DNA of 64,000 nt. It comes from Planctomycetota bacterium (lineage in GTDB: Bacteria; Planctomycetota; MHYJ01; JACQXL01; JACRIJ01). A model generated the notes under the pieces. It searched no databases, was not told the DNA's origin, and saw only the letters and a program-made list of their open reading frames with translations. Both the position numbers and the translations under genes were made by a program. The stretch's first letter is position 1. Every line of letters begins with the position of its first letter. The stretch covers positions 5,296-69,295 of the forward strand of contig JACRIJ010000048.1 in the NCBI GenBank assembly GCA_016220095.1, read 5' to 3'. This document shows, one piece after another, positions 19,935 to 60,649 of the stretch.

Positions 19935-20040
19935 TTTAACCACGAAGCACACGAAGTGCACGAAGAGCGGCTCGTGAAACTCGTGATCTTCGTGGTAGAA
20001 AGCGCTATGACGACGGCTAAATTAGCCACGAATAAATACG
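19935..20040. repeat. Repeat family R4 (CCACGAAG-cACACGAAG-tgCACGAAG ... CTTCGTGG), palindromic CACGAAG motifs
   Basis: Related copies lie at 25995-26040, 32570-32610, 37615-37645 and 53580-53650. Variants 34480-34580 and 26440-26500 replace cacgaag with cacagag. Confidence 0.7.
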
Positions 20041-21507: not shown

Positions 21508-21588
21508 AGAAAATACGGGATTATGGGGTTACGGAGTTACGGGGTTATGGAGTAGGGGTGAACCCATATGTTCACCCTGTTAAAGAGT

Positions 21589-22401: not shown

Positions 22402-22561
22402 ATTAACGAAATATGAAATATGAAAAATGAAGGACGACGTTCGGGTCTCGACTCCCGGATCTCGGACATCGGCCCTCAGGCAACGTCCTTTCGTCTTCCT
22501 TTTTCATTTTTCATCCTCGTTCGTTTAAACGGGCCACGGGAAACGGGTCACGGGCCACGGA

Positions 22562-22987: not shown

Positions 22988-25495
22988 CTATTCTCCTCCA
23001 ACCAAAAGAGTAAGGTCATCCAGTTCTTTTTTCCAGCGCAGGAAGCTCGGGCTGTTGGCGTTTTCAGGGGATGCGTTTGTGAATTTTTCGTAAGCGAACA
23101 AGGCGAGTTCTATGTTTTTTTGCGCGTCAGCGGTGCGGTTAAGGGAATAATAGCATTTAGCTTCCTGTATAAGCGCCCATAGCATTTCGGGCTGGGAATT
23201 GAATTTTTTCCAGGCCGTTGAATACGTGTTCGCGGCGTTCGCATAGTCCTGCAGGTTGAAGAATGCGTCGGCGATATTAAAATAGGAATTCCTGTTCATC
23301 TCGGAATATCCGGGGTAAGAGGCGATGGGTATGCCGTCCCGGCCGTCCAATTTTCCGGTCTCTATGGTGTTGTAATAATCGGCGATGGCGTTTTTCCAGT
23401 CCTGTTTGAGCGAGTATGACTGGGCGCGGTGGTAATACGCGGAAAAAGTGTTTTCCGGGTCATCGTTTTTATAGCGCGTGATGGCCTCGGACAGCGTAAG
23501 AACGGCGCTGGAGATGTCGTTTGTTTTCTTTTCAAAATTTGATGACTGCAGGAGCGCTCTTTTATAATAAAGTTCTCCGAGTTTGAAGATGGACAATTTC
23601 CATTCCGGCGTGAGCGGCGAGAACAAAGTGGAACTGCTCAGTATGTTCAGGAACGCCTGTTCGGCGTTATCAAGGTTACCGGAGAGCATTATGGAATGGG
23701 CTTTTTCGTAATAAGACATGTAGCCGTACGGAGGCGTATAGGGATAAAACGTGATATTTTCGTCAAAGGTTTTGATGGCCTCGCTGTATTGGCCGAGTTT
23801 TTGATAACACATGCCGAGCTTATAGTATGCTTCAGTCCTGTTAAGCGGAAAATGAGTGCTTATGTATTGTTTGAATACGCCGGCCGCCGGGGAGTAGGCC
23901 TCTGCCTGATAGAGCGAATCGCCGGCGGACCACAGATGGATATTGGACGCGGGCGCGGCGGGAGCCGCCTTATAGGCGCTGATAAATGCCTTTGCGGTTT
24001 TGACATAGAATCTTTTTGTCACATTGCGGAGGTCCATGTAATCGCTGGTTATGCCGGACTTAATGGTGGCGCTGTATTCCCTTTCATGCAATTTTGATAC
24101 GTTAAGGTAAGTCCTGCCGAGGAGCGCGTAATTATCCTGCGAAGGGTCAACGGACGTAAGTTTTTCAACCGTATTCATTATTCGCAGGAGCGTTTGCCGC
24201 GAATCCATAGTCGGCAGAATGGCGTCAATTTTGGCGCGGAAGTCTTTTATGAAATCATCGCGGCCCGCGGGGAGTTTTTTAATTTTCTGAAAGGACGACT
24301 CGTAAAGTTCAAGCGATTTTTCAATGAGGTTATTTTTAAAGTAAATATCGGCGAGCTTAAGAGTTGCCAGAAACTGGTATTCGTTGGGAACCTTGCTTCC
24401 GGCCAGAAGGGCCTCAAAGCAGGTATAGGCGTTGGGATAGTCGTTATTGCCGATGTAGGCAAGGCCGAGCGCAAAAGAGAGTTCTGGGAAGGCTTCCTTG
24501 TCGGAGTTACGGGGAAGGACGGGTTGCAGAAGCGCGATGGTATCGGCGAAATTGCCGGTTTTTATAAACAGGTTGGCGATTCTCAGCAAGGCGGTTTTGT
24601 TGTTTTTTTCAAGTTCAAGGATGTTCAAATAGCAAATGTACGCGTGGTTAAGGTTGAAATCAGCCCGGTTGATATTTTCGGAAATGGCGCCTTCAACGAG
24701 CAATTTGGCTATTTCTTCCTGCACGCCCGCGTTTTTATCATAGGCGGCGAGGGCTTTTTTTATCTTATCCAGTCTTTCTTGCACGGCCGCATCGGCGTCT
24801 TCCGCTTTTTCAAATGTAGGCAGAGGGAGCAGGCTGATGCATTCGGCAATCTTAAGGTTAAAAAGCCTTTCATTCGGATAATACTGCTGGAACCTTTTGA
24901 ATTCCGCGAGGGCCTGGGTTGGATTGCCGGAATCCTTGATTTTCTCAATGGAATCCATTATAGCGCCGGACATTTCCGGGACAAAAAAATCGTTTTTGAT
25001 TGCGGATTCAAACATGCCAAGATTAGATTGGAGCGCGTTGGCCGAGGGCATGGTTTCCGCGAATTCCTGTTTATAAGCCGTTAATGCCATAAGGCCCTGG
25101 ATTTCGCCTGTGAACTTATTGCGGGGGAAGCGGGCGATGAAATCAGCGCCTTCTTTCATGGTGTTGACATAATCGTTAAGCATGTAAAGCTGGCGGATTT
25201 TATCGGCTTCAAAGGCGTAGACTTTTTCGTAACGCCCTTTAGACGGCAGGAATAGCGGGACGAGGAGCACGGAAAGAATTGCGAATACAAAGGTAGACAC
25301 CTGCCAGTGTACTGCGCATTTTCGCGCGAACGATGCAAATGTAGGAATAGATTCAATTAAAGGCATAATATTAAAGAAATACTTTTCGTCCTGGTCGTTT
25401 TGCTGCTGAATAACGAAACGACGATACGGATTTTGCCACAGCCCTTCGCTCTGCTCCCTTCGGCACCTCAGGATTGCGACAGGATAAAAGAGCAC
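22988..25495 (-). CDS. Membrane-anchored tetratricopeptide-repeat protein
   Basis: Many TPR-like Y/A/L-rich repeats. The likely true start is the internal Met at 25366 (MPLIESIP... followed by a TM helix). The first 43 codons of the track ORF overlap intergenic repeat sequence. Confidence 0.6.
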   Translation of the reverse strand: MLFYPVAILRCRREQSEGLWQNPYRRFVIQQQNDQDEKYFFNIMPLIESIPTFASFARKCAVHWQVSTFVFAILSVLLVPLFLPSKGRYEKVYAFEADKIRQLYMLNDYVNTMKEGADFIARFPRNKFTGEIQGLMALTAYKQEFAETMPSANALQSNLGMFESAIKNDFFVPEMSGAIMDSIEKIKDSGNPTQALAEFKRFQQYYPNERLFNLKIAECISLLPLPTFEKAEDADAAVQERLDKIKKALAAYDKNAGVQEEIAKLLVEGAISENINRADFNLNHAYICYLNILELEKNNKTALLRIANLFIKTGNFADTIALLQPVLPRNSDKEAFPELSFALGLAYIGNNDYPNAYTCFEALLAGSKVPNEYQFLATLKLADIYFKNNLIEKSLELYESSFQKIKKLPAGRDDFIKDFRAKIDAILPTMDSRQTLLRIMNTVEKLTSVDPSQDNYALLGRTYLNVSKLHEREYSATIKSGITSDYMDLRNVTKRFYVKTAKAFISAYKAAPAAPASNIHLWSAGDSLYQAEAYSPAAGVFKQYISTHFPLNRTEAYYKLGMCYQKLGQYSEAIKTFDENITFYPYTPPYGYMSYYEKAHSIMLSGNLDNAEQAFLNILSSSTLFSPLTPEWKLSIFKLGELYYKRALLQSSNFEKKTNDISSAVLTLSEAITRYKNDDPENTFSAYYHRAQSYSLKQDWKNAIADYYNTIETGKLDGRDGIPIASYPGYSEMNRNSYFNIADAFFNLQDYANAANTYSTAWKKFNSQPEMLWALIQEAKCYYSLNRTADAQKNIELALFAYEKFTNASPENANSPSFLRWKKELDDLTLLVGGE

Positions 25496-25651
25496 AGAGA
25501 CTACGGAGAACGCAACGAATTAGACAGGGACTTAACGAGACTCTAAAGAGATACGACGACGAAACTACAATAGGTATTTTCGACGCTTGCGTTTACGTAC
25601 GCTCTTAAAAATCGTTTTACGTTCTGTGACCTCTGTGGCAAATCGGCACAG

Positions 25652-25966
25652 TTAAGGGTTTTTGATTTCTTCCTTATCAAGCATTTCCTTAACTTCCTGG
25701 AGCGTATGATGGCGCTTAAGGCGTTCAATTTTTGCGAGCCGCTGGAACACCAGTTCCGGATATAAACGGTGCCCGGATTTCGTGCGTTCGGCCTCGGAAA
25801 TAAGGCCGAGCATGGTATAGTTATGCAGGGTTTGGCGCGAGATACCCGTGTAGTGGATGATTTCGCCGATCTTAAAAAGTTTAACGGGAAGCACCACTCC
25901 CGTAGCGGCGAACGCAAGATGCCCGTCTTTCTGTTCAACCTCGGATTCAGCTTGATTTTTTTTCAT
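25652..25966 (-). CDS. MerR-family transcriptional regulator
   Basis: 104 aa with the HTH LFKIGEIIHYTGISRQTLHNYTMLGLI...SGHRLY. The overlapping ORF 25543-25938 is rejected. Confidence 0.65.
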   Translation of the reverse strand: MKKNQAESEVEQKDGHLAFAATGVVLPVKLFKIGEIIHYTGISRQTLHNYTMLGLISEAERTKSGHRLYPELVFQRLAKIERLKRHHTLQEVKEMLDKEEIKNP

Positions 25967-26280
25967 TATTCAATCCCCCGAAATAATTTAAGATTTACGC
26001 AGAGAACAACGTTTTTTGCCACGAAGACACGAAGGACGATTATTCCTGTCACTACGATGACTGATAAGCGATAGCTTTCCCGGCAATTTTTGTGACTTCT
26101 TGGCAAATCCTTTGTTACTTTATATTTTATAAAGTATAAAGTATAAAATTAAGAGGAATTTGTCAAGTAAAATTTTGCATTTCATGAAAAATTTATTTTG
26201 CATAACATGTTGAATTGCAGTCTGTTGTGAGACGTGTGTAGAATTTTGAAAAATTATCGGAAGTTCCGATAATACGAAGG

Positions 26281-26405
26281 AGGAAAAACGAAAAATGAAG
26301 AATGAAGGACGATACGAAAGAATGATAGAATGGCAGGATGATAGAATGTTTTGTAAAAATCTTAATTTTTAAATTCAAAATCTTAAATTTTAATGCCTGC
26401 CCCTT
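26281..26405. repeat. Dispersed intergenic repeat family R1 (gaaaaatgaagaatgaaggacg...agaatgatagaatggcaggatgatagaatgtttt...aatcttaaatttta-gcctgcccc)
   Basis: Other copies lie at 30695-30817 (inverted) and 60474-60592. Fragments lie at 22395-22440, 34585-34630, 56700-56745 and 58955-59045. Confidence 0.8.
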
Positions 26406-26509
26406 ATCGTTTGAAAACCTGTAAAACTCGTCGTTTTCCGTGTATTCTGTGTGTTCTGTGGTAAAAAATTATCGTCGTTTCGTCTTCGTGTGCATTCGTG
26501 TGTATTCGT

Positions 26510-26569
26510 GGCTAATCAGCCGTCCCGCCGTCAAATTACACAGAACCGCACAGATTACGACGAAGGAGG
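26510..26569. repeat. Dispersed repeat family R2 (ggctaatcagccgtcccgccgtcaaattacacagaaccgcacagattacgacgaaggagg)
   Basis: An inverted copy lies at 30618-30680 and a partial copy at 37731-37760. Confidence 0.8.
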
Positions 26570-26835
26570 GAGTACTCTGTTGGGATTTAATGACTGGATG
26601 ATTTGCGATTTAATGATTGAGACGTGCAACGCGTAATCGTTTACCCTGAGGCGGCCCGAAGGGTAAATCATCAAGTCATCCAGTCACCAAATCATTAAAT
26701 TTCCGAAAGGTTTCGTCGTTCAGTCGTTTACTCGCAGTTGTCAATCTGCCTAATCTGTTGCTAAAAAAAAACGGCCTGCCCGCTTTTTCAAGCAGACAGG
26801 CCGTGTAAAATTTGCGTCTATGAACGCCGCGTCAA

Positions 26836-29800
26836 TTACTTGCCGCCTCTGGAGGATTTGGCTTTCATCTTGGCGCCGAACATTTCTGCGCTCTTATAGT
26901 ATGAACCGGTCTTGTAATACCAGTTGTCATACTGGGTGAACGTGAATTTCACGCCCGGGTCTTCGTTAAGAACCTGGACATTATCAATCGTCCAACCGCG
27001 ATAACCGTTATACAGTCCGTCATTCGAGGTAAAGTAGAATCTTACCTGGATCACGTGGCCTGCAAACGGGTCAAGGTTGACTGAATAGTTCAGCCACACC
27101 GGTACCGCGTCAACGCCGCCCGAAGAATAGTTCGTGTAAGCGACCTGGCCGCCGTACGGGGGTTCGCTTTCCGGGTTCAGGTTGAACAACGTGTTCCAAC
27201 CGGCATTGGGGTAATTAGTAGTAGCAGTGTCTATTGTATAGTTGTTGGTATCTGAATAGATATCAACCGTGCCTGCATCGTCAACCACTCTGACCTGGAC
27301 GTACATCTGGTCATACTGGCCGCCTGCGCAATCAACGCTTTCGGTTTCAAACCATGATTTGAAAGCGAGTTTCGCGTTGGCGAAATCGGTCAGGTCAATA
27401 AGCGGGGATGTCAGGTAACCTTCGTTACCGCCGCTCGGTGATGTGCCGCCGTTATTGGCATAATTGGAATACTGCAACGCGTTCGTTTCAGTGGTATCCA
27501 GCGTGCCGTCTCCGCTATAAAGCGGCGTATCCGCGCCGATGAATGTGCCTGTGGCGTCTTCACCGTACCAGAATACTGTTGTGCCTGTTGAAGGAGCAAG
27601 CAGTGTTACGGAAGCGGTAGAGGCGGTGTCTGTAACAGTGACAATAAGCACGTCGCCTGCATCAATCGTTCCATTACTGTTCGTATCGGTAAAGGACGAA
27701 ATCGGCAGTTCGTTACTTCCCTGGGAATCCGACAGATATATGGTGTCATCAAGCGTAAACGCGTTGTCATAGTTCCAGTCATAAACATAGCCCCACGCGT
27801 CAGCCGTGCTGTCACCATTGGTATCCAGGGTTAAATCCCCGTAACCATAGTTGTTTGTGATGGTGAGGACAACAAAATCCTTGTCAATCTTCGGTTCGTC
27901 CGGGTATTCAACGAGCGTGCTTACAATGTAAGGCAGTACTGCGATTGAATTCGGATTTGTGACTGTGTGCCACAAACCGCTTGCATCCCAATCTGACGCG
28001 TCGGCTTCAAAGTCCCAGTCATAAGTGACCGCGACTGCAATGGGGTCAAGGGCGAAATTGACTGTTACGGTTTGGTTGGCTACCAATGTGCCTACAGCAT
28101 CCGTAGGAGAAGGCGAGAAATCGTCTGCCTGTGCCTTGATTGTCAGCAATCCGCTGAGAATCGGGTCAACGTCTTCAAACGTATAAACGCCGTTAGCATC
28201 CGTTACCGCTGTCATAACTGCGGTGTTGATGCCTGATGCGGGCAGATAGATGTTCTTTACGAGAACCATTGATGTCGGGTCGCCCTGCAGATCAATATCC
28301 GCAGTTGCCGAACCGCTGAACGGTATGCTGTTAATCGTCCATGAAGCAGTTACGCCGAATGTCAGCGTAAGTGTATCTTCAAGGTAGGATGTGCCGGGCG
28401 TAAAATCCTGGATAATCGCGCCGAAGTTATCGGTCACGAAGTTTGTAAGGGCGTTGTAGAAAACCAGGTCGCCGCTGGATATCGTTGTTTCCGGAACAAT
28501 GAAATAGGTAGGCAGATCGTTACTGTCCGTACCATTGGCGGTAACGCCGGCGTATGTTCCGTGCAAACTGGCTGTCCATTCAAAAGTTGCATTCTGTCCG
28601 GCTGTTGCAAAGAAGAAACCGACATTCTGGCCGCCCCAGATATTGACTGTTCCCAAATTGGCCGTAAGCGAGCCGGTCATATTGATCTTGCTCTTGTCAA
28701 AGATGACTTCAAACGAACCCTGTGAGATTTCCGTCAAGGTTGCGCTTTCGTCCACCGCGGTAACCTGCAGGTCGTAAATGCCTGAGAAATCCGCAGTAGC
28801 GTAGTTCGTAAGAACTGATAGGAGAAGTTCATCGTTCATGACAAAGTTCATGCTTTCCGAGCCCATGCCGTGTTTAATGCTGACCCACGTAGTTTCGTCC
28901 GGTTTCTTGAAATCCCAGTAATAATGCGTGTCGGGATTCATGCCTACCGCGACGCCCGTTACTACGTCACCGCCGTCGGTGGTGTATTCAATCGATTCAA
29001 CGGATGTTAATACGGACGGGTTCTTCATGGTGACTATTGCGCCTTCAATGGGCGAACCATTGGCGGAATTCGTTACCGTTCCCGATACCGTGGCCGTTGT
29101 TGAAATCGGAGCAAGGGCGAAATTCAGGGCGTAATCTGTTACGTTATTTTCCACAGTGACAATTGAATAATCTTCAAAGAAACTTTCCGCTTTGACAAGA
29201 AGGCTTACGCTGGGTGAGTCAAACGGGATTGTCAGTGTGATGGAATATGCACCGTCCGTGCCTGACATGACGAATGTTTCATTGGCAAATACCAGTGCAT
29301 TCTCAATGGCGTTATCGGACGTGTCTTTTACAGTTCCTGTAATGGTGATTGTCGGATCAACTATCACGCTTTCATAAGCGAATACAAAAGGATAAAGCAC
29401 ATTCAGATAGACGCCGCTTGCGGATGCGAGGTTGTATGAACCGTTGCCGCCGTTGGCTGTCGGATTGAATTCCACCTGTGCGTCTCCTGCTTTCGTCCAG
29501 GTCTTATCACTGTTATCCGTCATGTCATAATACCAGAGTGACAGTGTAACAAGTCCCTGGGAAGCGAGGTTATTCAGTGTTTCAGCGTCTTTGTCGCCGA
29601 GCACTTTTGAGGATCTCGGGGTAATCATGTTCTTGGTTGGATCGGTTGTGTTCCAGCCGATTTCAGTTAGAGTGGCCTTTTTGCCGTTATCAGACCTTAC
29701 GAAGCTTACATCCGCTCCGCCGCAGACCGTTCCGGTTACGCCGTGGTCTTCGCTGTTGACCGCGGGCGGTACGTTCGGGTTGGTGTAAGGCGTTACGCTG

Positions 29801-30384
29801 ACTGCAATGTCCTGTGTAAGCGACATTGATTCAATCGTAATGCTTGTGCTTCCATCTGAAGACGTGACAACCTTCGGAGCAGCTTTCTGTGACTTTGACG
29901 CGCTTGCGATAAGTTCCACGCTATTCGAGTCCAACTGTTGAAGGAAGAGATAAAGGGTTGTCGCCGTTGACAGGTCCACCGTTGCCGAAGCTTCGGTATA
30001 ATTCGGGGCGTCAACCGTTACGAGAGCCGTAGCGCTCGGGGACACGTTGACTGCGAAAATACCGCTTGAATTGGTCGTGGACGAGGCCGTGCCGATAGCG
30101 ATATCAGCGCCGGAAAGAGGCAGAAGCGTGCTCGTGCCTTCCATTTTGAACAACATGCCCGTAAGGGATACTGTTGTTCCGGAACCGCCGCCGGTTGTGC
30201 CACCGCCAGTCGTGCCGCCACCCGTGGTGCCGCCGCCTGTGGTGCCGCCGCCAGTCGTGCCGCCGGTCGTTGTGTCAGTAGTCGTAGAACTACTGCCGCC
30301 GCCGCCACCGCAGCCTACTGCGCCAATGCCTACGGCAATGGCAAACAATACCAGGCTCAGTGCCATAGTATGCTTTCTAAGCAT
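26836..30384 (-). CDS. Large surface lipoprotein (1182 aa) with a (TTGGG)n low-complexity linker and Ig-like or carboxypeptidase-regulatory-like beta domains
   Basis: A signal peptide is followed by the lipobox AVGC. A G/T-rich tandem linker follows, then the rest is rich in beta-strand T, S, N, D and G residues. Confidence 0.75.
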   Translation of the reverse strand: MLRKHTMALSLVLFAIAVGIGAVGCGGGGGSSSTTTDTTTGGTTGGGTTGGGTTGGGTTGGGTTGGGSGTTVSLTGMLFKMEGTSTLLPLSGADIAIGTASSTTNSSGIFAVNVSPSATALVTVDAPNYTEASATVDLSTATTLYLFLQQLDSNSVELIASASKSQKAAPKVVTSSDGSTSITIESMSLTQDIAVSVTPYTNPNVPPAVNSEDHGVTGTVCGGADVSFVRSDNGKKATLTEIGWNTTDPTKNMITPRSSKVLGDKDAETLNNLASQGLVTLSLWYYDMTDNSDKTWTKAGDAQVEFNPTANGGNGSYNLASASGVYLNVLYPFVFAYESVIVDPTITITGTVKDTSDNAIENALVFANETFVMSGTDGAYSITLTIPFDSPSVSLLVKAESFFEDYSIVTVENNVTDYALNFALAPISTTATVSGTVTNSANGSPIEGAIVTMKNPSVLTSVESIEYTTDGGDVVTGVAVGMNPDTHYYWDFKKPDETTWVSIKHGMGSESMNFVMNDELLLSVLTNYATADFSGIYDLQVTAVDESATLTEISQGSFEVIFDKSKINMTGSLTANLGTVNIWGGQNVGFFFATAGQNATFEWTASLHGTYAGVTANGTDSNDLPTYFIVPETTISSGDLVFYNALTNFVTDNFGAIIQDFTPGTSYLEDTLTLTFGVTASWTINSIPFSGSATADIDLQGDPTSMVLVKNIYLPASGINTAVMTAVTDANGVYTFEDVDPILSGLLTIKAQADDFSPSPTDAVGTLVANQTVTVNFALDPIAVAVTYDWDFEADASDWDASGLWHTVTNPNSIAVLPYIVSTLVEYPDEPKIDKDFVVLTITNNYGYGDLTLDTNGDSTADAWGYVYDWNYDNAFTLDDTIYLSDSQGSNELPISSFTDTNSNGTIDAGDVLIVTVTDTASTASVTLLAPSTGTTVFWYGEDATGTFIGADTPLYSGDGTLDTTETNALQYSNYANNGGTSPSGGNEGYLTSPLIDLTDFANAKLAFKSWFETESVDCAGGQYDQMYVQVRVVDDAGTVDIYSDTNNYTIDTATTNYPNAGWNTLFNLNPESEPPYGGQVAYTNYSSGGVDAVPVWLNYSVNLDPFAGHVIQVRFYFTSNDGLYNGYRGWTIDNVQVLNEDPGVKFTFTQYDNWYYKTGSYYKSAEMFGAKMKAKSSRGGK
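30150..30300 (-). repeat. Tandem 15-bp coding repeat (about 5 units, gccgccRgtSgtgcc) encoding (GGTTG)n in the lipoprotein linker
   Basis: The periodicity is directly visible. The poly-P antisense ORFs 30018-30308 and 30047-30400 are artefacts of it. Confidence 0.8.
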
Positions 30385-30472
30385 AAAAACACCTCCATAG
30401 AAAAAAGTTACGTCCGTTGATCCAACATTGATTAACAGACAATGGTTAAACGTTAAATCCCTAAGTAAGAAT

Positions 30473-30501
30473 ATTATACCCTACAAAACGCGAAAAGTCA
30501 A
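30473..30501 (-). promoter_or_regulatory. Sigma-70 promoter of the lipoprotein gene
   Basis: The minus strand reads TTGACT, a 17-bp spacer and TATAAT. It lies about 85 nt upstream of the ATG, which has an RBS GGAGG. Confidence 0.65.
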
Positions 30502-30694
30502 GGCAATTATAAAGTTTTTTTTTGTAACACTGGTAAGGCGAAGGAAGCAGGGAGAAGACAGACCGGACGTCCGTGGCCCGTTTAAACGGGAACCGGGCAA
30601 CGGGAACCGGGTGACGTCCTCTCTCCTTCGTCGTAATCTGTGCGGTTCTTTGTAGTTTGACGGCGGGACGGCTGATTAGGGACAATGGAGTTAA

Positions 30695-30817
30695 GGGGGC
30701 AGGCATCAAAATTTAAGATTTTAGATTTGAGAATTAAGATTTTCTAAAACATTCTATCATCCTGCCATTCTATCATTCTTTCGTTCCGTCCGTCCTTCAT
30801 TCTTCATTTTTCGTTTC
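30695..30817. repeat. R1 copy, inverted relative to 26281-26405
   Basis: Together with R2 and R3 copies it forms a composite module of about 300 bp. That module is the inverted counterpart of 26281-26590, and the two flank the lipoprotein gene. Confidence 0.8.
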
Positions 30818-32413
30818 GGCATCAGACGCCGTCAATATGCGCGGTATGAACATCAGGCCTTTTACCACCTGCTGGGAGATGTCGTTTACCATTACGGTTA
30901 TCGGTTTTGCGCCGGTGTCCGTGAGTTTCATTATCCAGAACAGCACCGCTAATCTTGCCACGGAGGTCCACAGGAACAGTATCTGTTGGTAGCACATCCC
31001 GGCTACCTGCACGTTATAAGACTGGATGATGCTCGCCAGGCTTCCTGCCAGCATCGCTGAACTTGCCGCGGCTACGTTGGCAAAACAGGAGAATATCGCG
31101 TAATAGACCTCTTTTCCCCTCTGGGGCGAAACGCCAAGAAGCATATTGAATAAGGCCAGTTCAAGTCCGCCCCATATAATCCCCGATGAAATGTAGTCCC
31201 ACCATATAGGCAGGGTAAAGCCACGCCTTGCAATAATATACATCAGCGGATGGAATACCCCGAAATAAACTGTAAAAAGCATGACGGGCTTGTTGCCGTA
31301 TTTCTGAATCAGCCTTCCCCATATAGGTATGAAGATAATTCTCGCCACCTGCGAAGCCAAAGACATCAGGGCTATGCTTTTGTAAGTCAACGACAGGTTC
31401 TCTATCTGGAACGCGCCCCAGAACGGCCCCGCAAATCCGTTCAGAAAACCCCATAATACAATAAAGAGCAGGAGATTATTGAAGTTTTTATCCTTCCTGT
31501 ATTCCTTCCAGCTGAAAGGTTCCTGCGCCGGAAAGGTCTGTTGCGCCGGTTCCGGCTGTCTGAGTATGAAAAAAAGCGACATAAGAGACGCTATAGCTCC
31601 GGCAATGAACAGGATTGAAAGCCCGACGAATTCCAGCGTCTTAAACGAATTGCCGAATAGATCCATTATCTTATCCGTGAACGGGAAGATATCCATGAAA
31701 AATTTCCCGATGCCTTTTGACATGTCCAGAACGTGGCTCGGGTCGTTTTTGTCCAATTGGAAATTCGCAATGAAGTACCCTGCCGCGAGGGTTATGACGA
31801 ATGAGACTATGGTAACGTACATGTTTCGCCGGCCGAAATAGGTTGAACGGACTTTTTCAGGCACCAGGTCGCTCATCCAGCTTGTCCAGACGTTGCCGCT
31901 TATAGCGAGGCTTGCCCAGCTGATTCCGTAGATGATGAAGAAAATCATGAGTGCCGTGGATTTTACGAAAAAGCACGGTATGAAAGGCACGGTTATCCAG
32001 ATAAACCTTGATACGATGCCTGTGACGGCGGTGACATTTTTCCTGCTGGATATCCTGCTGAGGAATACCGACGTGAAGACCGGTATGATGTTTACGAGCG
32101 GCGGAATGGCGGCCAGGAGCCCGTAATGGAATTCATTCGCGCCTAACAGGATGATGAACCCCAGCGGGTAAATGCCGCCGGTGAGCGCCATGTGCACGGT
32201 CGCGAAACATCCTTCAATAGTTGATATCTTTAACCCGTAACGGGTATCTGTTTTCTTTGTGGACATAACCTTAATATAACGATTTAAGATGTAAGATTGA
32301 AGATATAAGGTAATACTTAAGCTATTTGAAGTAATTCCCCCCTCCCTTGATGGGAGGGGGCATAGGGGGAGGGTGAAAAACATTTTCCCCCTTTCTCTGT
32401 CCCTCTCCCGCAA
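30797..32413 (-). CDS. MFS-type transporter
   Basis: About 12 TM helices. The likely true start is the Met at 32266 (MSTKKTDTRYGLKIST...), which gives 489 aa. The upstream part of the track ORF overlaps the palindromic repeat. Confidence 0.7.
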   Translation of the reverse strand: MRERDRERGKMFFTLPLCPLPSREGGITSNSLSITLYLQSYILNRYIKVMSTKKTDTRYGLKISTIEGCFATVHMALTGGIYPLGFIILLGANEFHYGLLAAIPPLVNIIPVFTSVFLSRISSRKNVTAVTGIVSRFIWITVPFIPCFFVKSTALMIFFIIYGISWASLAISGNVWTSWMSDLVPEKVRSTYFGRRNMYVTIVSFVITLAAGYFIANFQLDKNDPSHVLDMSKGIGKFFMDIFPFTDKIMDLFGNSFKTLEFVGLSILFIAGAIASLMSLFFILRQPEPAQQTFPAQEPFSWKEYRKDKNFNNLLLFIVLWGFLNGFAGPFWGAFQIENLSLTYKSIALMSLASQVARIIFIPIWGRLIQKYGNKPVMLFTVYFGVFHPLMYIIARRGFTLPIWWDYISSGIIWGGLELALFNMLLGVSPQRGKEVYYAIFSCFANVAAASSAMLAGSLASIIQSYNVQVAGMCYQQILFLWTSVARLAVLFWIMKLTDTGAKPITVMVNDISQQVVKGLMFIPRILTASDAETKNEE

Positions 32414-32456: not shown

Positions 32457-32708
32457 GATTTGTTTTCTTTGGTTACGGCTGGTTTGTTTTGCCTTATCTT
32501 ACACTTACACTTTTTCTTTACAAAAAGAATCGTTAATGTTTAAATAGTTTTAATATGTAACTTCTACGTTTTTAGCCACGAGGGCACGAAGACACGAAGG
32601 ACGCATGTTTCAGTACAATGATTGACATTCGGCATTCTTTATGTAAATCTTCATGCCTTCGTGGCAATATATATAGTGGTTGATTTTTATTTTTTAGGAG
32701 TATTTTTT

Positions 32709-32912: not shown

Positions 32913-32976
32913 GTCTGAGGTTTACACCGTGATCCGTTTAAACGGGAACCGGGCACCGGGTCACGGGAAACGGAAA

Positions 32977-34434
32977 TCAATCCACCCAGTAATTCGGCGC
33001 TTCCTTGGTTATAACGACGTTATGGGGATGGCTTTCTTTCAGGCTGGCCGTGGATATCTTGACGAAGCGCGCCTTTTCGCGCAATTCTTCGATATTCTTC
33101 GCGCCGCTGTAGCCCATGCCTGCTTTGAGGCCGCCGATTAACTGATGCACAAAATCAGACAACGGGCCCTTGGACGGCACCAGGCCTTCTATTCCTTCGG
33201 GTACGAGTTTTGAGCGTTCTTCAACGCTTGACTGCTGATAGCGGTCTTTACTGCCTTTTTCCATCGCGTCAATGGAGCCCATGCCGCGGTATGCCTTATA
33301 AGACCTTCCTTTATATATAATGGATTCTCCAGGGCTTTCATTCGTACCGGCAAACAGGCTTCCTATCATCACGCTGTTTGCGCCTGCGGCAATGGCCTTG
33401 GTGATATCGCCCGAATGCGTAATGCCGCCGTCGGCTATAACGGGTATCTTGTATTTTTCCGCGGCGAGCGTGCATTGGTAAACCGCGGTAATCTGCGGGA
33501 CGCCTACGCCGCTTATGATTCTCGTGGTGCATATGGAACCGGGCCCTATGCCGACCTTTATCCCGTCGGCGCCGGCTTTTATCAATTCTTCGGCGGCTTC
33601 ATTCGTGGCAATATTGCCGGCAATCAATTCTATGCCGAATTTCTTTTTTATTTCTTTTATTGTTTCAATGACGTTTTTGCTGTGGCCGTGCGCCGTATCC
33701 ACGACGATGACATCCACGTCGTTTTTTACGAGTTCGGAAACCCTGTCATAATCATGCACGCCGACTGCGGCTCCGACTCTCAACCTGCCGCGGCCGTCCT
33801 TGCAGGCGTTCGGATATTGCAGGAGCTTGTTTATATCTTTGATTGTTATCAGCCCTTTTAATTGGAAGGCCTTGTCAACCAGCAGTAATTTTTCAACCTT
33901 TGCCTGATGCAGGATCTGTTTGGCCTGTTCAAGCGATGTCCCGAACGGCGCCGTTATAAGGTTGGTTTTGGTCATTACGTCGGCTATTTTCTTGCTGTCA
34001 TCCTTCTGGAATCGCAGGTCCCTTATGGTAAGTATGCCGACAAGTTTCTTCCTGTTGTCAAGGACCGGTATGCCGGAGATATGGTGGTCGTTCATTATTT
34101 TTTTCGCGGTCCTGATGGTTTCGTCGGGCGGGAGCGATATGGGGTCAAGTATGATTCCGTTGGCGGACCTTTTTACTTTCATAACCTCCCGCGCCTGGTC
34201 AACGACAGGCATGTTTTTATGGACGATGCCTATGCCGCCTTCCTGGGCGAGGGCTATGGCGAGCCGGGAATCCGTTACGGTATCCATGGCCGCGGATACG
34301 ATAGGTATGTGCAGGTTTATATTTTTGGTCAGGCGCGTCATGGTGCCGATCTGGGACGGCACGATGTCGGATTTGTTCGGCACTATCAGGACGTCGTCAA
34401 AGGTAATCCCGTCACCTATGAATTTGTCTTTCAT
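32977..34434 (-). CDS. guaB: IMP dehydrogenase GuaB
   Basis: 485 aa. It has tandem CBS domains, the catalytic loop ([11 protein letters not shown]) and an IMPDH barrel. Confidence 0.95.
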
Positions 34435-34627
34435 ATATAAATCCTTTCGTAAGAAGTTCAGGGGATAAAAAAACGTTTTTTAGCCACAGAAAACACAGAG
34501 AGCGCAGAGAACTATGGCTCGTAATTCGTGGCAAAAATGTCATCGTTATTCCTCCGTGATCTCTGTGCGCTCTGTGGTTTCGTAATCGTCCGCCGTCCTT
34601 CATTATTCATTTTTCATATTTCATTTT

Positions 34628-35227
34628 TTACTTATATCTTCGCAGTGTCTCAAACGGGTCTTCCATTTTTATTATAACCGGGCTGGCTGACGCCTGGAAG
34701 GCCGCGGTTATGGCGGTTCCGATGTCTATAAAAGCCTTTTGTTGTTCCGCATTAACGAGCGATTCGTAAGCGACAATGCGTTTCATTTCCGCGGTTTCAA
34801 GGCAGATGGCCTTGGAAACATCCATGGCCCTGGAGGTTTTTTCCGCGGCGGGCATGTCAAAGAAACCGTTATCCCGCATGATTTCCAGCAATCTCGCGGA
34901 AAATTTTATGTCCATTACGGATTCCAGCGGCGCGCCGAGATTCTGGAGCGGGTTTCGGGCGTACATGTGTTTATTAAGCCAATCCTGCGTCTGCATTACT
35001 ATAATGGCGCTCGTGTAGGGATTTTCGGGTTTTGTAAATGTCTGCGGGGTGGCTCCGGCGAGTTTGTTGTTATAATACGAAATCCTTACGTATTTCGGGT
35101 TTATTTCCGGAGCGGCGCCGGAAGTTGACGCGCAGGAGGCGCAGAGTATTGACAGCGCGAAGGCAAATGCGATGCCCCGCCAGTTCTTCGTTCCCGGTAT
35201 CCTGAAAAATACGTTGAAAAAATTCAT
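34628..35227 (-). CDS. Hypothetical lipoprotein
   Basis: 199 aa with a signal peptide and the lipobox ILCASC. It is translationally coupled to proS (stop and start overlap). Confidence 0.5.
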   Translation of the reverse strand: MNFFNVFFRIPGTKNWRGIAFAFALSILCASCASTSGAAPEINPKYVRISYYNNKLAGATPQTFTKPENPYTSAIIVMQTQDWLNKHMYARNPLQNLGAPLESVMDIKFSARLLEIMRDNGFFDMPAAEKTSRAMDVSKAICLETAEMKRIVAYESLVNAEQQKAFIDIGTAITAAFQASASPVIIKMEDPFETLRRYK

Positions 35228-36960
35228 TACTGTAACCGCATTTTTTCCATTAGGGTCGTATATTCATTCCAGAAGCCGTGTATTTTCACGCCGACTTCGT
35301 TTATGTTTACGGTGTATTGTTCTTTTTGCATGCGAAGTTTTACGTCAACCGTATTGCTTTTGAGCGTTTTTGAGCCGACCGTTATGCGGATGGGCATTCC
35401 GATGAGGTCAGCGTCCTTGAATTTGACTCCCGCGGACACGTCGCGGTCGTCCAGGAGCACGTCAATGTTCATGCCCTTCAATGTCTCGTATATGCCGTTG
35501 GCCGCGGCGGCTATTTTTTCGTCTCTCGGATTTATGGCGGAAATTACCGCCTGAAACGGCGCCAGATTAGGCGGCCAGATAATGCCGTCCTGGTCATTGA
35601 AAAGTTCCAGCGCGGAGGCGATAATCCTGTTTACGCCTATTCCGTAACAGCCCATTATTATCGGGTGCGATGCGCCTTTTTCGTCCAGGTACAGGGCGCC
35701 GAGTTTCTGGGAATATTTCGTGCCGAGTTTGAATATATGCCCTATTTCAATGCCGCGCGAAATAGAAAGGGTGCCGTCGCATTTAGGGCACTTGTCGCCG
35801 GTAACGCATACGCGCGCGTCAACGAATTGGGCCGGAGTGAAGTCGCGGTCAAGATTGACATTGGTTAAATGCGTATCCGCTTTGTTTGCGCCGGTGACGA
35901 AATTTTTCAGCGCCTTTACCGAATGGTCCGCGATAACGGTCATTTTCAATCCGACCGGCCCGGAGAATCCAAGGGGGCCGCCGGTGGTTTTTTCTATGGT
36001 TTCCTTATCGGCCATGGCGATATTGGCCGTATTAAGGATGTGCGCGAGTTTGGTTTCATTGACGTCATGGTCACCCCTGACAAGCACTGCAACGGGTTTG
36101 CCGTCCGCGACATAAATAAGCGTTTTGACAAGTTTCATTGCGGGCACTTTCAGGAATTCCGTAACCGCGTCAATGGTGGATTTGCCCGGGGTTAAGACGG
36201 ATTCGCTTGCTTTCAGTGGTTCCTGTTCTAAAGATTGCGGGGGCCGGCATTCGGCCTTTTCCATATTGGCGCTGTAGCGGCATTTGCCGCAGGAAACAAG
36301 CAGGTCTTCGCCGGATTCCGCGGGGATCATGAATTCCAGGGACGTATCCCCTCCCATAAGTCCGGAATCCGCCAGTACTATTTTATATTTCAGTCCGCAA
36401 CGGTCAAAGATACTGCTATAGGCCTTATACATCGCGTCAAAGCTCTTATCAAGTCCGCCTTTTGAGGTGTCAAACGAATAGGCGTCTTTCATAAGGAATT
36501 CCTTACTGCGTATGACGCCGAAGCGCGGGCGTATCTCGTCGCGGAACTTGGTCTGTATCTGGTATAGGTTGATAGGCAGTTGTTTATAAGACGAAATCTC
36601 ATTGCGTACGATATGCGTAACGACCTCTTCGTGCGTAGGGCCGAGGACCATGATTTTGCCGGTCCTGTCGGTGAATTTGCACATCAGAGGGCCGAAGGCG
36701 TTAAAGCGTTCGGATTCAATCCACAGTTCCGACGGCTGGAGCACGGGCATAAGAATTTCCTGGGCGCCGGCGCGGTTCATTTCCTCGCGTACGATGTTAA
36801 TGGCCTTGTTTAAGACCTTGAAACCTGCGGGCAGGTAGTTGTAGATGCCGGAACCGAGTTTTCTTATAAGGCCGGCGCGGATCATCAGCTTCTGGCTGAT
36901 AGTATCCGTTTCGGAAGGGTCTTCTTTTAATGTGGGAATAAGATAATTGGACCAGCGCAT
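35227..36960 (-). CDS. proS: Prolyl-tRNA synthetase (bacterial type with an editing domain)
   Basis: 577 aa. It has class II aaRS motifs, an INS editing domain and an anticodon-binding domain. Confidence 0.95.
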   Translation of the reverse strand: MRWSNYLIPTLKEDPSETDTISQKLMIRAGLIRKLGSGIYNYLPAGFKVLNKAINIVREEMNRAGAQEILMPVLQPSELWIESERFNAFGPLMCKFTDRTGKIMVLGPTHEEVVTHIVRNEISSYKQLPINLYQIQTKFRDEIRPRFGVIRSKEFLMKDAYSFDTSKGGLDKSFDAMYKAYSSIFDRCGLKYKIVLADSGLMGGDTSLEFMIPAESGEDLLVSCGKCRYSANMEKAECRPPQSLEQEPLKASESVLTPGKSTIDAVTEFLKVPAMKLVKTLIYVADGKPVAVLVRGDHDVNETKLAHILNTANIAMADKETIEKTTGGPLGFSGPVGLKMTVIADHSVKALKNFVTGANKADTHLTNVNLDRDFTPAQFVDARVCVTGDKCPKCDGTLSISRGIEIGHIFKLGTKYSQKLGALYLDEKGASHPIIMGCYGIGVNRIIASALELFNDQDGIIWPPNLAPFQAVISAINPRDEKIAAAANGIYETLKGMNIDVLLDDRDVSAGVKFKDADLIGMPIRITVGSKTLKSNTVDVKLRMQKEQYTVNINEVGVKIHGFWNEYTTLMEKMRLQ

Positions 36961-37057
36961 TTAATGAAAAACTTCCTAAAAAAGCGTAAATCTATAATCC
37001 GGCAATTATATCAAAAAAAACGCGGTATGCAAGAAAAAAAGGATGACGAAGGTAACC

Positions 37058-37284
37058 CGTCAGTAAACTGTGGCATTTCAATATGTGATTTGTGATATAA
37101 AACAAATAAAAGCGTATAGTAGCCCAGCCATTTATGGCTGGGTTTGTATGTCAAAAGCCTAACATATACGCCATTTATGGCGTTATGTTAAGGGTATGAA
37201 TGCCCTTTATGTTTTTCAATTTTCTATTCCCCAGCCATAAATGGCTGGGCTACTAACGTCCTTTAATGCCACCGTTTACTGACG
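37058..37284. mobile_element. MITE-like palindromic element with 20-bp terminal inverted repeats
   Basis: The terminal inverted repeats are CGTCAGTAAACTGTGGCATT and AATGCCACCGTTTACTGACG. A nested internal inverted repeat reads agtagcccagccatttatggctggg / cccagccataaatggctgggctact. A related partial copy lies at 56933-57050. Confidence 0.6.
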
Positions 37285-37472
37285 CCTTACTCAGGCGGCA
37301 AGATTTTCCTTGACAAACACAGGAAGGAAGTGGTAGTTCCAACTTAAGGAGGGAGTGATAGGGACGGATTTTAACGATTCACTTTTCAGGTATTATATAT
37401 TTCGAAAAATGAAAAGGCTAAGCGCCACAGAATTCCGCGTGAATCATTGAACGCTTTATGCTTTTGTTCATA

Positions 37473-37512
37473 AGCGTGGAGTGATGATTTTTCAGCTCCA
37501 CGCTTTTTTTTT
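37473..37512 (+). terminator. Rho-independent terminator on the plus strand
   Basis: A perfect 9-bp stem (agcgtggag/ctccacgct) is followed by T9. Confidence 0.6.
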
Positions 37513-37888
37513 AACTTTCTGGCCGAGCGGAAGACCGAAGAAGGTAACCGATGCCAATCTGAATCACAAAATCTTCCACCCCCTTCGGAAGTACGAAATA
37601 AATCGACGTTCTTTGTGTCCTCGTGCCTTCGTGGCTAAAAACATACTATCGGCGTAAGGGGGTAGGCTTTCCTTTCTTCGCTAAAGCTGCGGACAGCGCG
37701 GCTCTAAGTGTACTTTGGCGTTTGTACTTTGTAATTTAACGGCGGGACGGCTGATTAGCCACTAATGAACACTGATGCACACGAAAAGCTGTTGAAGCTC
37801 CCTGTTGCTTGCAGTAGTGAGCTTCAACAAGATGAATACATGGATTCCCCCCTACCCCATAACTTCGTAACCCCACAACCCCGTAACC

Positions 37889-52440: not shown

Positions 52441-52576
52441 GAAAAACCGCACCACTGCGAAGAAGGATGCGGGACAGCACGTAAGGGAACTGCCCTGCCG
52501 CACTCTTCCCCGGCCTATCCCGTTGTTGTCCGGAACAGGCCGTTCAGTGCATGTGCAGAGATTGTGTTGTGTTTCA
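52441..52576 (-). ncRNA. Conserved structured 3' element downstream of small-protein paralog 1, possibly an attenuator in front of the giant gene
   Basis: It is about 85% identical to 53851-53961. It forms two hairpins with compensatory and wobble changes between copies, and a T5 tract follows. Confidence 0.4.
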
Positions 52577-52792
52577 TTATAATTCCGTCTTCTGCCAGCC
52601 AACAAGGTATCCGTCCGTAAAAATATAGCGTTCTTTCATGTTGCCGCTGACATGCGAATAAATCCATTCCTCATGCCTCGCGGAATTCCTGTTGCTGGCC
52701 GTCCTGACCTCTTTGGCCATGGGCTTGCCGCGTACGCATAAAATGTCCTCGGTCGTAAACGGCGGACAACATATTTTTAAGTCTTTATTCAT
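52577..52792 (-). CDS. Small 71-aa protein, paralog 1, sigma-54-dependent, unknown function
   Basis: The sequence is MNKDLKICCPPFTTEDILCVRGKPMAKEV...YIFTDGYLVGWQKTEL. It is about 80% identical to the 53962-54180 product. It has the RBS GGAGG. Confidence 0.6.
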   Translation of the reverse strand: MNKDLKICCPPFTTEDILCVRGKPMAKEVRTASNRNSARHEEWIYSHVSGNMKERYIFTDGYLVGWQKTEL

Positions 52793-52841
52793 ATATATTC
52801 CTCCAGAAATAATGCAAAACCTTCTCTATAATATAGTATAA

Positions 52842-52857
52842 CGCAAATGCAGTGCCA
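52842..52857 (-). promoter_or_regulatory. Sigma-54 promoter of small-protein paralog 1
   Basis: The minus strand reads TGGCACtgcatTTGC with the GG-N10-GC spacing. It lies about 50 nt upstream of the ATG. Confidence 0.65.
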
Positions 52858-52968
52858 TAGCGCTTAATAAGGCAAAAGCAGGCGCTATCTCTAACACGCT
52901 GTTTGTCAACATGTTGTGGCGGCGGCAAAGGGCCGGTTTTTAGGGGTTTTACGGCAGATGTGCTAAAA

Positions 52969-52997
52969 TTCATACAGATGGATAATTTTTCATACAG
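52969..52997 (-). promoter_or_regulatory. Putative enhancer/UAS direct repeat TTCATACA-N13-TTCATACA
   Basis: It lies about 115 bp upstream of the sigma-54 promoter. The same motif sits at the same distance upstream of paralog 2. Confidence 0.45.
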
Positions 52998-53850: not shown

Positions 53851-53961
53851 AAGAGTGCAGGACAGCCCGTAAGAGAACTGCCCTGCCTTGATCTTCCCCG
53901 GCCTATTCCGTTGTTGTCCGGAATAGCCCGTTTAGTGTATGTGTAGAGGTTGTGTTGTGTT
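53851..53961 (-). ncRNA. Conserved structured 3' element downstream of paralog 2
   Basis: One hairpin is CTATTCCG-gacaacaa-CGGAATAG and a second is GCAGGGCAG...CTGTCCTGC. It is homologous to 52441-52576. Confidence 0.4.
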
Positions 53962-54180: not shown

Positions 54181-54228
54181 GATTCCTCCGGAAACAATTC
54201 AAGATTCTCTCTGCTATTCTCTTTACAC

Positions 54229-54243
54229 GCAAAAATAATGCCA
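54229..54243 (-). promoter_or_regulatory. Sigma-54 promoter of small-protein paralog 2
   Basis: The minus strand reads TGGCATtatttTTGC with the GG-N10-GC spacing. Confidence 0.55.
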
Positions 54244-54346
54244 TTAAAATGAAAAAAACAAACACTGGCGTGTCGTTATAACGGATTGATTATCAAGGTG
54301 TTGCGTTGGCGGAAGAAGTGCGCCTTTCATACCTCAATTAAACGGG

Positions 54347-54374: not shown

Positions 54375-54406
54375 TTTTCATACCTGGAAATGAATTTACA
54401 TAATTC

Positions 54407-56745: not shown

Positions 56746-56819
<74 letters not shown>

Positions 56820-58932: not shown

Positions 58933-59100
58933 TTCTACAAAACGGATTTAAGATTTAAGACTTACGATGTAAGATTTTTTCGGCGTATCTTCATAAAATT
59001 TTAATTCTTAAATCCAAAATCTTAAATCTTCAGGCCTGCCCCCCTGCGTTTTTGACCCCGTTTTCAGACATCCCGATTTTTTGACCGAAGTAGAAAATTC

Positions 59101-60333: not shown

Positions 60334-60649
60334 GCTTCCGGGAACCAGCAAAGGTCTGGCATCCGCGTCTAATTAACCAGAATAACCTAAAAGTGAATTG
60401 CTGAGCCCTCCGAAGCCAAGGGCGAAGGAGGGAAGGCATGCCCCCTTGCGCTCTTTCGACGAAGGAGGAAGAAGGAAAAATGGAGAATGAAGGACGTACG
60501 GAACGCAAGAATGATAGAATGGCAGGATGATAGAATGTTTTGTAAAAATCTCAATTCTTAAATCTAAAATCTTAAATTTTGAGCCTTGCCTTTTACGCCT
60601 GCTCTTCAAAAAATATTTTTCTTGACAAATACAGGAAAGAGGTGGTAAA

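Follow-up and report, generated by a model that had tools for sequence, protein, structure and literature searches.

A putative surface lipoprotein gene in this DNA lies between two inverted composite repeats, which raises the question of whether the repeats act as the arms of an invertible or recombining cassette, or of a composite MITE pair, or whether they "may simply reflect the repeat density", as the original prediction allowed. The locus was examined within the window, by which is meant the whole 64-kb stretch of DNA analysed. The host is a Planctomycetota MAG that, by the source names of matches in a protein search, has Candidatus Brocadiia as its closest named relatives.

The bracketed gene and its inverted flanks

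The bracketed gene (26836..30384, minus strand), as given in the ORF list, encodes a putative lipoprotein of 1182 aa. Inspection of its N-terminus, MLRKHTMALSLVLFAIAVGIGAVGC, reveals a signal peptide that carries a lipobox-like Cys; after it comes a (TTGGG)n linker, encoded by a 15-nt tandem repeat (repeat family D1; 30185..30289, minus strand). The Pfam domains CarboxypepD_reg, CarbopepD_reg_2 and InhA-like_MAM were also identified. A sigma-70-type promoter, TTGACT-17-TATAAT (11/12 match; 30473..30501, minus strand), precedes the gene, and an intrinsic terminator comprising a 15-bp stem with 9 G-C pairs and then T8 (26771..26804, minus strand) follows it. In its organisation the lipoprotein gene is ordinary: a monocistronic unit served by its own promoter and terminator, with a GC content (~0.50) that matches the surrounding DNA. 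Both the gene and its promoter fall inside the bracket, as had been predicted.

Gapped comparison of the two arms resolved two matching blocks. Block A at 26286-26403 aligned with the reverse complement of 30696-30816 at 108/122 identities (89%; E = 8e-35), and block B at 26512-26575 aligned with the reverse complement of 30616-30679 at 60/64 identities (94%; E = 3e-20). Both blocks were also recovered by an ungapped repeat finder, and perfect matches between the arms extended to 39, 27, 26 and 24 nt. This similarity is far beyond chance and, given the block order A-B...B'-A', the arms form a true composite inverted repeat around the lipoprotein gene and promoter, in agreement with the original prediction. 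The predicted length of about 300 bp was an overestimate, the matching sequence amounting to only ~182 nt in two blocks. The left arm spans 290 nt and the right arm 201 nt, the difference being due to the A-B spacer (108 nt and 16 nt, respectively).

In the left arm (plus strand), module A consists of A1 (26286-26348), a GAATGA-type word array, and A2 (26349-26403), a AATCTTAA-type array that ends in GCCTGCCCC. The start of module A adjoins the junction motif ACGAAGGAGG (26274..26283, plus strand), and the same 9-10-mer closes module B at 26560-26569. Five occurrences of ACGAAGGAG were found in the window, against 0.32 expected, every one of them at a module edge. The insert between A and B (26404..26511, plus strand), which is missing from the right arm, contains two arrays, one of CGTGTATTCTGTG and one of TAGCCAC-(CACGAA)n in reverse complement. 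The right arm lies on the minus strand and consists of module B (30616..30679) and module A (30696..30816; A2 30696-30749, A1 30750-30816), the latter overlapping the final codons and stop (30797-30799) of the upstream MFS transporter ORF. A third arm component had been predicted as optional at 30555-30615. The sequence concerned, module C (30571..30616, plus strand), is an ACGGG-type array around the palindrome CCCGTTTAAACGGG, with copies at 32927-32972 (83% identity) and 22514-22559 (70%); it is confined to the right arm and had no left-arm counterpart in the gapped comparison. A small ORF in A1, suggested by AGGAGG and then ATG, was rejected because a 4-nt indel shifts the frame between copies.

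Two further modules lie inside the bracket on the terminator side. An imperfect palindrome of 110 nt (26584..26693; centre TTTACCCTGAGGCGGCCCGAAGGGTAAA; inverted pair I6) forms the dominant hairpin when 26270-26700 is folded, and a CAGATT/CGACTA-type module (26715..26759, minus strand) is 84% identical to 56512-56556 and 79% identical to 53072-53113.

Dispersed copies of the modules

By the original prediction, random occurrence of these flanks beside unrelated genes would count against a cassette, and such copies were found. A third full copy of module A (60459..60595, plus strand) belongs to an unrelated locus, with an AAA_14/DUF4143 gene on one side and a TPR gene on the other, and an A2-only copy (58995..59051, plus strand) lies upstream of the promoter of the gene at 59155-60333. 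A third copy of module B (37724..37785, minus strand) comprises the 5' half with a CACGAA-array extension and is 87% identical to 26485-26546, a segment that runs from the left-arm insert into module B. The 20-nt core of module B, CTAATCAGCCGTCCCGCCGT, is invariant across the three window copies. In addition, fragments of the A1 start occur at 22408-22437, 34594-34622 and 56712-56740, where they adjoin a histidine kinase gene, a 199-aa ORF and tRNA-Arg. Pairwise identity of module A was 89% between the left and right arms, 85% between the left arm and the 60-kb copy, and 90% between the right arm and the 60-kb copy (60472-60590). Judged by these identities, the arms of the bracket appear to have no special pair relationship, the right module A being as close to the 60-kb copy as to its partner.

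The left intergenic region shares separate modules with seven other intergenic regions and, among the 13 repeat-bearing regions, 31 of 78 pairs have a module in common. The strongest pair of regions (36961-37888 and 56408-57066; 222 bits) is non-adjacent, and the bracket pair ranks second at 213 bits. By our own arithmetic, an adjacent pair among the four strongest would arise by chance with a probability of ~0.5. With so high a density of repeats, the bracketing position is within chance, and the hedge in the original prediction is borne out. Several other brackets exist, but a general rule of inverted copies around each transcription unit was rejected, as the 28 matches between regions comprise 15 inverted and 13 direct.

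The combination A1+A2+B in the same order was found only in the two arms among the window loci, which implies that the composite was copied as a unit at some point. The neighbouring position of the two composites could therefore reflect a local event and not pure chance; the chance of adjacency together with inverted orientation is ~0.25 by our own estimate, which draws on only 13 regions.

The words that make up the modules are characteristic of this DNA. They are 10-90-fold enriched in intergenic over coding DNA, and CACGAAG-type arrays number 7 in the 64-kb window versus 6 in 1.27 Mb of other genomes. Neither the 185,579 species-representative genomes nor the JGI metagenome collection contained a match to the 20-mer core of module B. 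Searching Rfam at gathering thresholds returned tRNA-Arg only, with no family at the modules.

The locus in close relatives

The comparison drew on 64 kb of a single genome and on three short contigs from relatives, L003 and L084 being from different sequencing runs. L003 carries a lipoprotein ~91-92% identical to the window protein, and its coding sequence is 81-95% identical per 150-nt window, with a difference of 15 nt in the alignment around the tandem repeat that encodes (TTGGG)n. Homology extends from the A-tract of the promoter to the T-tract of the terminator, beyond which identity is that of background. The promoter stretch (30365-30514) keeps 98% identity, which is lost abruptly upstream of 30515; at the other end the terminator is kept and homology stops just past its T-tract. 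In place of the arms, the flanks of L003 match other modules of the same repertoire (window positions 25500-25560 and 56441-56518, and the A1 start) and form their own 32-nt inverted pair. In L084, both intergenic regions around IMPDH are likewise replaced.

Identity at four-fold degenerate sites was 82% (0.815) for IMPDH and 78% (0.775) for the lipoprotein gene. That the mosaics are unalignable while these sites remain so similar indicates that point mutation alone is insufficient to account for their divergence. A search for homologues of the lipoprotein gave one scored match, the T/G low-complexity linker having probably flooded the candidate list. A scan of genome contigs with IMPDH gave matches of at most 64% and no syntenic relative, and an exact-protein look-up of the MerR ORF gave no match.

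The Logan contig of the source sample ends at 26786 and 30580, short of the A and B blocks on both sides. The break at 26786 appears to adjoin a position in the terminator loop at which the relative differs by a single base.

Explanations for the bracket and known repeat systems

The repeats are genuine. They are dispersed without preferred orientation, have no relation to the expression signals of the gene and are not conserved with it in a close relative. We consider it probable that two copies of an interspersed mosaic repeat specific to the lineage, organised in the manner of BIMEs/NIMEs, came to lie on either side of the gene by chance, and that the bracket has no dedicated function. Most intergenic regions of this genome are made up from a common set of 30-120-nt modules, which consist of quasi-periodic 7-9-nt words and are combined in differing order and orientation at each locus, and the A+B combination happens to occupy both intergenic regions beside the lipoprotein gene in opposite orientation. 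The modules may be spread or reshuffled by an active process, either mobilisation or recombination/gene conversion between copies, and whole sets of them would be exchanged between genomes that retain ~80% identity at neutral sites. One side effect could be rare RecA-mediated inversion of the 4-kb segment by homologous recombination between the arms, which share perfect matches of up to 39 nt, as the original prediction allowed. Such an event would carry promoter, gene and terminator together and leave expression unswitched.

A more far-reaching claim, which we regard as rather unlikely, is that the lineage has an undescribed, actively reshuffling intergenic mosaic system of at least 10 quasi-periodic module families, replaced wholesale with breakpoints exactly at promoter and terminator edges, even as paralogous copies keep 85-94% identity. 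If true, this would call for a dedicated mobilisation or gene-conversion mechanism without the hallmarks of REP/RAYT, MITE or dRS3 systems, and the lipoprotein bracket would be one of its products.

Among the alternatives to chance juxtaposition, a NIME-like function is the least improbable. NIMEs (Parkhill 2000; Bentley 2007, PMC1797815) are intergenic arrays of many ~50-150-nt module families that lie at gene boundaries, including beside surface-protein genes, and vary in composition and length between related genomes while the neighbouring genes stay. They are proposed recombination substrates for allele replacement in Neisseria, and the present arrays could by analogy aid replacement of the lipoprotein gene by divergent incoming alleles. 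Multi-family arrays of 30-120-nt modules do lie beside a putative surface-protein gene here and, like NIME arrays (PMC1797815), are wholly different between close relatives; moreover, the lipoprotein is more divergent than IMPDH (92% versus 97.5% amino-acid identity, for one gene pair from two runs). However, the mosaics flank IMPDH, ProRS, tRNA-Arg and the flagellar operon just as often, with no bias to surface-protein genes. The four-fold identity of the lipoprotein gene is not clearly below that of IMPDH, the difference being within sampling error, so no clear excess of synonymous divergence is apparent and nothing suggests an imported divergent allele. NIMEs also have 20-bp inverted-repeat delimiters of the dRS3 type between modules, whereas a search of the window for ATTCCCN8GGGAAT gave one 1-mismatch match, inside a coding region, versus 0.32 expected, which is no more than chance. 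Unlike NIMEs, the modules are internally quasi-periodic word arrays and belong to a phylum unrelated to Neisseria. We consider a NIME-like function improbable.

It is distinctly improbable that the modules are functional cis-elements (insulators or protein-binding arrays, stabilisers of mRNA 3' ends, or small RNAs) and that the bracket reflects the boundaries of transcription units. By our own reading, four of the six copies of the A1 start are placed at 3' ends: three immediately follow the end of a gene or tRNA (30797, 34628 and 56745), and one comes 126 nt past the stop at 60333. Three of the four copies of A or A2 have a consensus promoter 35-230 nt downstream. The region 26270-26700 also folds better than shuffled sequence (z = -3.4). 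Against this, the right arm folds no better than its shuffles (z = -1.3), no Rfam family was matched, and orientation relative to genes is inconsistent, with the left arm pointing the "wrong" way. The modules are, moreover, not conserved at the orthologous positions in the close relative, in which promoter, Shine-Dalgarno sequence and terminator are 98% conserved.

Inverted repeats on both sides of a surface-protein gene recall the invertons (fimS, hin/hix and the Bacteroides capsule promoters), in which such repeats surround a segment next to or containing a surface-structure gene. Some global invertases act on distant loci, and a recombinase encoded elsewhere might flip the 4-kb segment and so give phase or antigenic variation. 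In invertons, however, the flip parts promoter from gene or swaps coding ends, whereas promoter, gene and terminator here lie together inside the bracket, so that inversion would produce no on/off change. Neither a silent alternative gene copy nor a partial cassette was found in the window. Invertons also have a dedicated recombinase; consistent with the original prediction that none is nearby, no recombinase or transposase Pfam domain was found in the annotated ORFs of the window, among which several small ORFs and two larger ones without any Pfam match (57067-57621 and 57826-58932) have no assigned function. A 92-nt indel sets the two arms apart, copies just as similar exist elsewhere for each module, and the arms are not kept in the relative, which has different flanks. 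Taken together, these observations make a site-specific invertible segment very unlikely, and the invertible or recombining cassette of the original prediction is not supported.

Least credible of all is that the arms are the ends of a composite transposon or MITE pair that brought the lipoprotein gene here: a single gene is indeed bracketed by inverted copies of a multi-copy element, and A and B are each present in at least three copies in 64 kb, but no transposase domain was found in the annotated window ORFs, the arms lack terminal inverted repeats (from sequence reading and folds, the ends of A, B and the A-B composite are not complementary) and target-site duplications, the GC content of the gene fits the surrounding DNA, its synonymous divergence is in line with that of chromosomal IMPDH, and the arms are missing from around the gene of the relative, for which 270 nt upstream and 173 nt downstream were covered. 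The left (...GGAGGAAA / AACG...) and right (...CGTT / TCGGCATC...) outer flanks have no common direct repeat, and the ACGAAGGAGG direct repeat around the left copy is part of the modules themselves.

Long inverted repeats on both sides of a surface-protein gene are not in themselves a sign of phase variation in repeat-dense genomes, and repeat density is the best explanation of the present pair. In this uncultured planctomycete lineage, intergenic DNA consists almost wholly of a private modular repeat vocabulary, whose mosaics are exchanged far more quickly than neutral sites change and interrupt short-read assemblies at almost all gene boundaries.

No description of these repeats was found in the literature searched, and the closest systems resemble them in organisation. 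The BIMEs of enterobacteria, built from REPs, are likewise interspersed extragenic non-coding mosaics, in which a few types of motif are combined in changing order and orientation, chiefly at gene 3' ends and between operons (PMC2817692, PMC3733652). The REP unit is a palindrome of 20-40 bp that bears a GTAG or CGTC tag (PMC3733652), whereas modules A and B measure 64-120 nt and are not palindromic. A RAYT-like gene goes with the REP system, and none was found in the window.

The BOX elements of Streptococcus pneumoniae (boxA-boxB-boxC) are also composite intergenic repeats of distinct modules with variable content, but they have a fixed A-(B)n-C architecture and no sequence relationship to the present repeats, in which many module families combine freely. 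The STRR heptamer repeats of heterocystous cyanobacteria provide the likeness at the level of words, being 7-9-nt words in tandem in intergenic DNA with a lineage-specific vocabulary. Here the words are degenerate and grouped into longer conserved modules, often as hairpin pairs, and they occur in a planctomycete that has sigma-54 regulators and flagellar genes. Should an active mechanism underlie these mosaics, they would represent a NIME/BIME-like system in a distant phylum, one that would help explain the fragmented MAGs of the group.

Structure and content of the inverted arms

When the intergenic regions on either side of the 1182-aa lipoprotein gene were aligned with gaps, two blocks emerged in the order A-B...B'-A', confirming that the inverted repeat around this gene is real. 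In block A, left-arm positions 26286-26403 matched the reverse complement of 30696-30816 at 108/122 positions (89%, E = 8e-35), and in block B, 26512-26575 matched the reverse complement of 30616-30679 at 60/64 (94%, E = 3e-20). The A-to-B spacing is 108 nt on the left and 16 nt on the right, such that ∼182 nt of matching sequence lies inside arms of 290 nt (left) and 201 nt (right), with perfect matches of 39, 27, 26, and 24 nt. The original prediction included an optional third unit in the inverted block; A and B were present on both sides, but this unit, the ACGGG-rich module C (30555-30615), was found only on the right and had no left-arm counterpart. Relatives of module C occur in the window at 32927-32972 and 22514-22559. 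Its conserved core is the palindrome CCGTTTAAACGG (30578-30591, 22525-22536, and 32935-32946), also present in an intergenic region of L084, a short-read contig carrying an IMPDH relative.

The sole ORF within the bracket (26836-30384, minus strand, 1182 aa) begins with a signal peptide up to a lipobox-like ...GAVGC, followed by a (TTGGG)n linker, and contains CarboxypepD_reg-type and InhA-like MAM domains. As originally predicted, the arms flank both the gene and its sigma-70 promoter (TTGACT-17-TATAAT, 11/12; 30501..30473, minus strand). A strong intrinsic terminator (15-bp stem and T8; 26804..26771, minus strand) also lies within the bracket, the arms of which neither contain nor separate any expression signal. 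The linker is encoded by a 15-nt tandem repeat (30185-30289) past the lipobox Cys, and a 15-nt difference in this part of the alignment with a 91% identical relative suggests that repeat number is polymorphic, in frame.

The bracket lies among chromosomal genes with housekeeping and regulatory functions, every one encoded on the minus strand: an MFS transporter (30797-32413), IMPDH (32977-34434), ProRS (35227-36960), a MerR-type regulator (25652-25966), and a TPR protein (22988-25495). A flagellar operon fills the first 21 kb. That no recombinase is nearby was borne out by a domain search, which detected no recombinase, integrase, or transposase domain among the ORFs tested in the 64-kb window.

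Further along, a 4210-aa ORF (39784-52416) contains many internal repeats (families D1-D6), a hydrophobic tail at its end and, by eye, beta-propeller-like YxYxxRG motifs and IPT/TIG-like segments. Between this giant gene and a sigma-54 activator lies a direct duplication (52460-52995 and 53848-54383; 543 nt, 76% identity), each copy of which contains a 71-72-aa ORF (MNKDLKICCPPFTTEDILCVRGKPMAKEV...). Two ORFs without any Pfam match (57067-57621 and 57826-58932) are situated just past tRNA-Arg. The GC content of the 57-64-kb region is 0.38-0.44, compared with ∼0.49 elsewhere in the window; this region could be an acquired segment, and no integrase domain was detected within it.

A dispersed repeat vocabulary

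On inspection, almost every intergenic region proved to be a string of quasi-periodic 7-9-nt words, namely CAC[GA][AG]AG, ACGGG, GAATGA, AATCTTAA, and CAGATT, with many arranged as hairpin pairs. These words were enriched 10-90-fold in intergenic relative to coding sequence, and 1.27 Mb of sequence from other genomes contained few of them. At unrelated sites, further copies were found of module A (60459-60595; its A2 half only at 58995-59051), of module B (37724-37785), and of the start of the A1 half (22408-22437, 34594-34622, and 56712-56740, the last directly 3' of tRNA-Arg).

All-against-all comparison yielded 28 matches between different intergenic regions, 15 inverted and 13 direct, and each of 31 among the 78 pairs formed by the 13 repeat-bearing regions had a module in common; the left-arm region shares separate modules with seven others. 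This dispersal supports the alternative, raised originally, that the bracket reflects repeat density. The bracket pair (213 bits) ranks second to a non-adjacent pair, 36961-37888 and 56408-57066 (222 bits). Twelve of the 78 pairs are adjacent, giving a probability of ∼0.5 that at least one of the four strongest is; this value is halved if inverted orientation is also required. Module A identity was 89% between left and right arms, 85% between the left arm and the 60-kb copy, and 90% between the right arm and that copy; the arms thus have no closer kinship to each other than to a distant copy. The sequences show that a dispersed mosaic repeat, in two copies, makes up the bracket. One motif alone, ACGAAGGAG(G), is a candidate for marking junctions: it occurs at module edges in 5 copies versus 0.32 expected and is itself part of the modules.

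Several other repeats were observed. The strongest intergenic pair is inverted (37170-37291 and 56926-57047; 122 nt, 88%), and two additional direct matches lie close by; the pair includes the hairpin CCCAGCCATTTATGGCTGGG, belongs to a family distinct from A, B, and C, and brackets the 4210-aa gene, one copy adjoining tRNA-Arg(CCT) (56745-56819). Arrays of TAGCCAC followed by (CAC[GA][AG]AG)n, often forming hairpins as inverted pairs, lie at 34463-34590, 19940-20000, 26010-26045, 32575-32605, 37607-37645, and 53575-53660; the first shows presence/absence polymorphism, as the close relative L084 lacks it. GTTTAAA shows 18-fold intergenic enrichment. An inverted pair of 48 nt (1239-1286 and 21534-21581; 81%) encloses the entire minus-strand gene cluster from flhB (1288) to a sigma-54 response regulator (21507), an arrangement that looks meaningful yet fits the general repeat density.

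Turnover of intergenic sequence among relatives

The comparison covered 64 kb of one genome plus three short contigs from its relatives, obtained in three different runs. The sole scored lipoprotein homologue, P0001 (91% identity), is encoded on a 4.1-kb Logan contig, L003, whose homology with the window begins at the A-tract immediately 5' of the -35 box and ends at the terminator T-tract. Identity was 98% in the promoter and 5'UTR and 81-95% per 150-nt window of coding sequence, falling to background at both edges. The L003 flanks are built of other modules from the same vocabulary, with an inverted pair of their own from a different module (32 nt, 84%). As judged from this sequence, the bracket is not conserved together with the lipoprotein gene.

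Similarly, in L084 (IMPDH 98% identical), genes are 88-99% identical, and both intergenic mosaics around IMPDH are replaced, with the ribosome-binding stretch kept. Four-fold degenerate sites are 82% identical for IMPDH and 78% for the lipoprotein, so that neutral DNA under point mutation would still align easily; the alignments indicate that the mosaics have been replaced, not merely diverged. Paralogous module copies are 85-94% identical within and between genomes.

After the identical protein, the next IMPDH relatives are from Candidatus Brocadiia (72%; taxonomy from depositors' protein names), and the best match in species-representative genomes was ≤64%. The Brocadiia MAG contig with the 72% identical IMPDH (L085) has hairpin repeats of other kinds as well as a single CCACAAAG-type array (∼3850-3880); modules A, B, and C were not found in it.

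The four Logan contigs from this lineage, L001 (window 26786-30580), L002, L003, and L084, are only ∼4 kb each. Both ends of L003 lie within intergenic mosaics, and those of L001 lie in module C and the loop of the terminator; MAG assemblies from this group are probably broken up by these repeats.

Origin of the bracket and comparison with known systems

The bracket is best explained as an ordinary product of intergenic DNA that is unusually rich in repeats, and it is this architecture, with its fast turnover, that deserves further attention. Since A1, A2, and B in this order are common to these two loci only, the A-B composite was probably duplicated as one piece in the past; one copy would later have gained or lost ∼92 nt, and modules generally would be moved or reshuffled by an active process.

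Perfect matches of 24-39 nt are about the minimum length known to permit RecA-dependent exchange in E. coli, so that the 4-kb unit could conceivably invert on rare occasions. In such an inversion, the promoter, gene, and terminator would turn as one block, leaving the gene unswitched. Interpretation as an invertible cassette is accordingly unsupported: promoter and terminator lie within the bracket, and the presence of inverted repeats is the only inverton feature observed in the window. Allelic exchange of surface-protein genes via NIME-style arrays is likewise unsupported, since housekeeping genes are flanked equally and, in the one gene pair compared, the lipoprotein gene differs at synonymous sites about as much as IMPDH does, within sampling error. 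The suggested MITE pair lacks the hallmarks of terminal inverted repeats and target-site duplication and is unsupported as well.

REPs are tagged palindromes of 20-40 bp (PMC3733652), whereas modules A and B are not palindromes, right-arm folding being no better than that of shuffled sequence (z = -1.3). The definition of NIMEs demands dRS3 delimiters (PMC1797815), and the mosaics differ in this respect, as none were found in the window. By organisation, the closest known systems are NIMEs and BIMEs.
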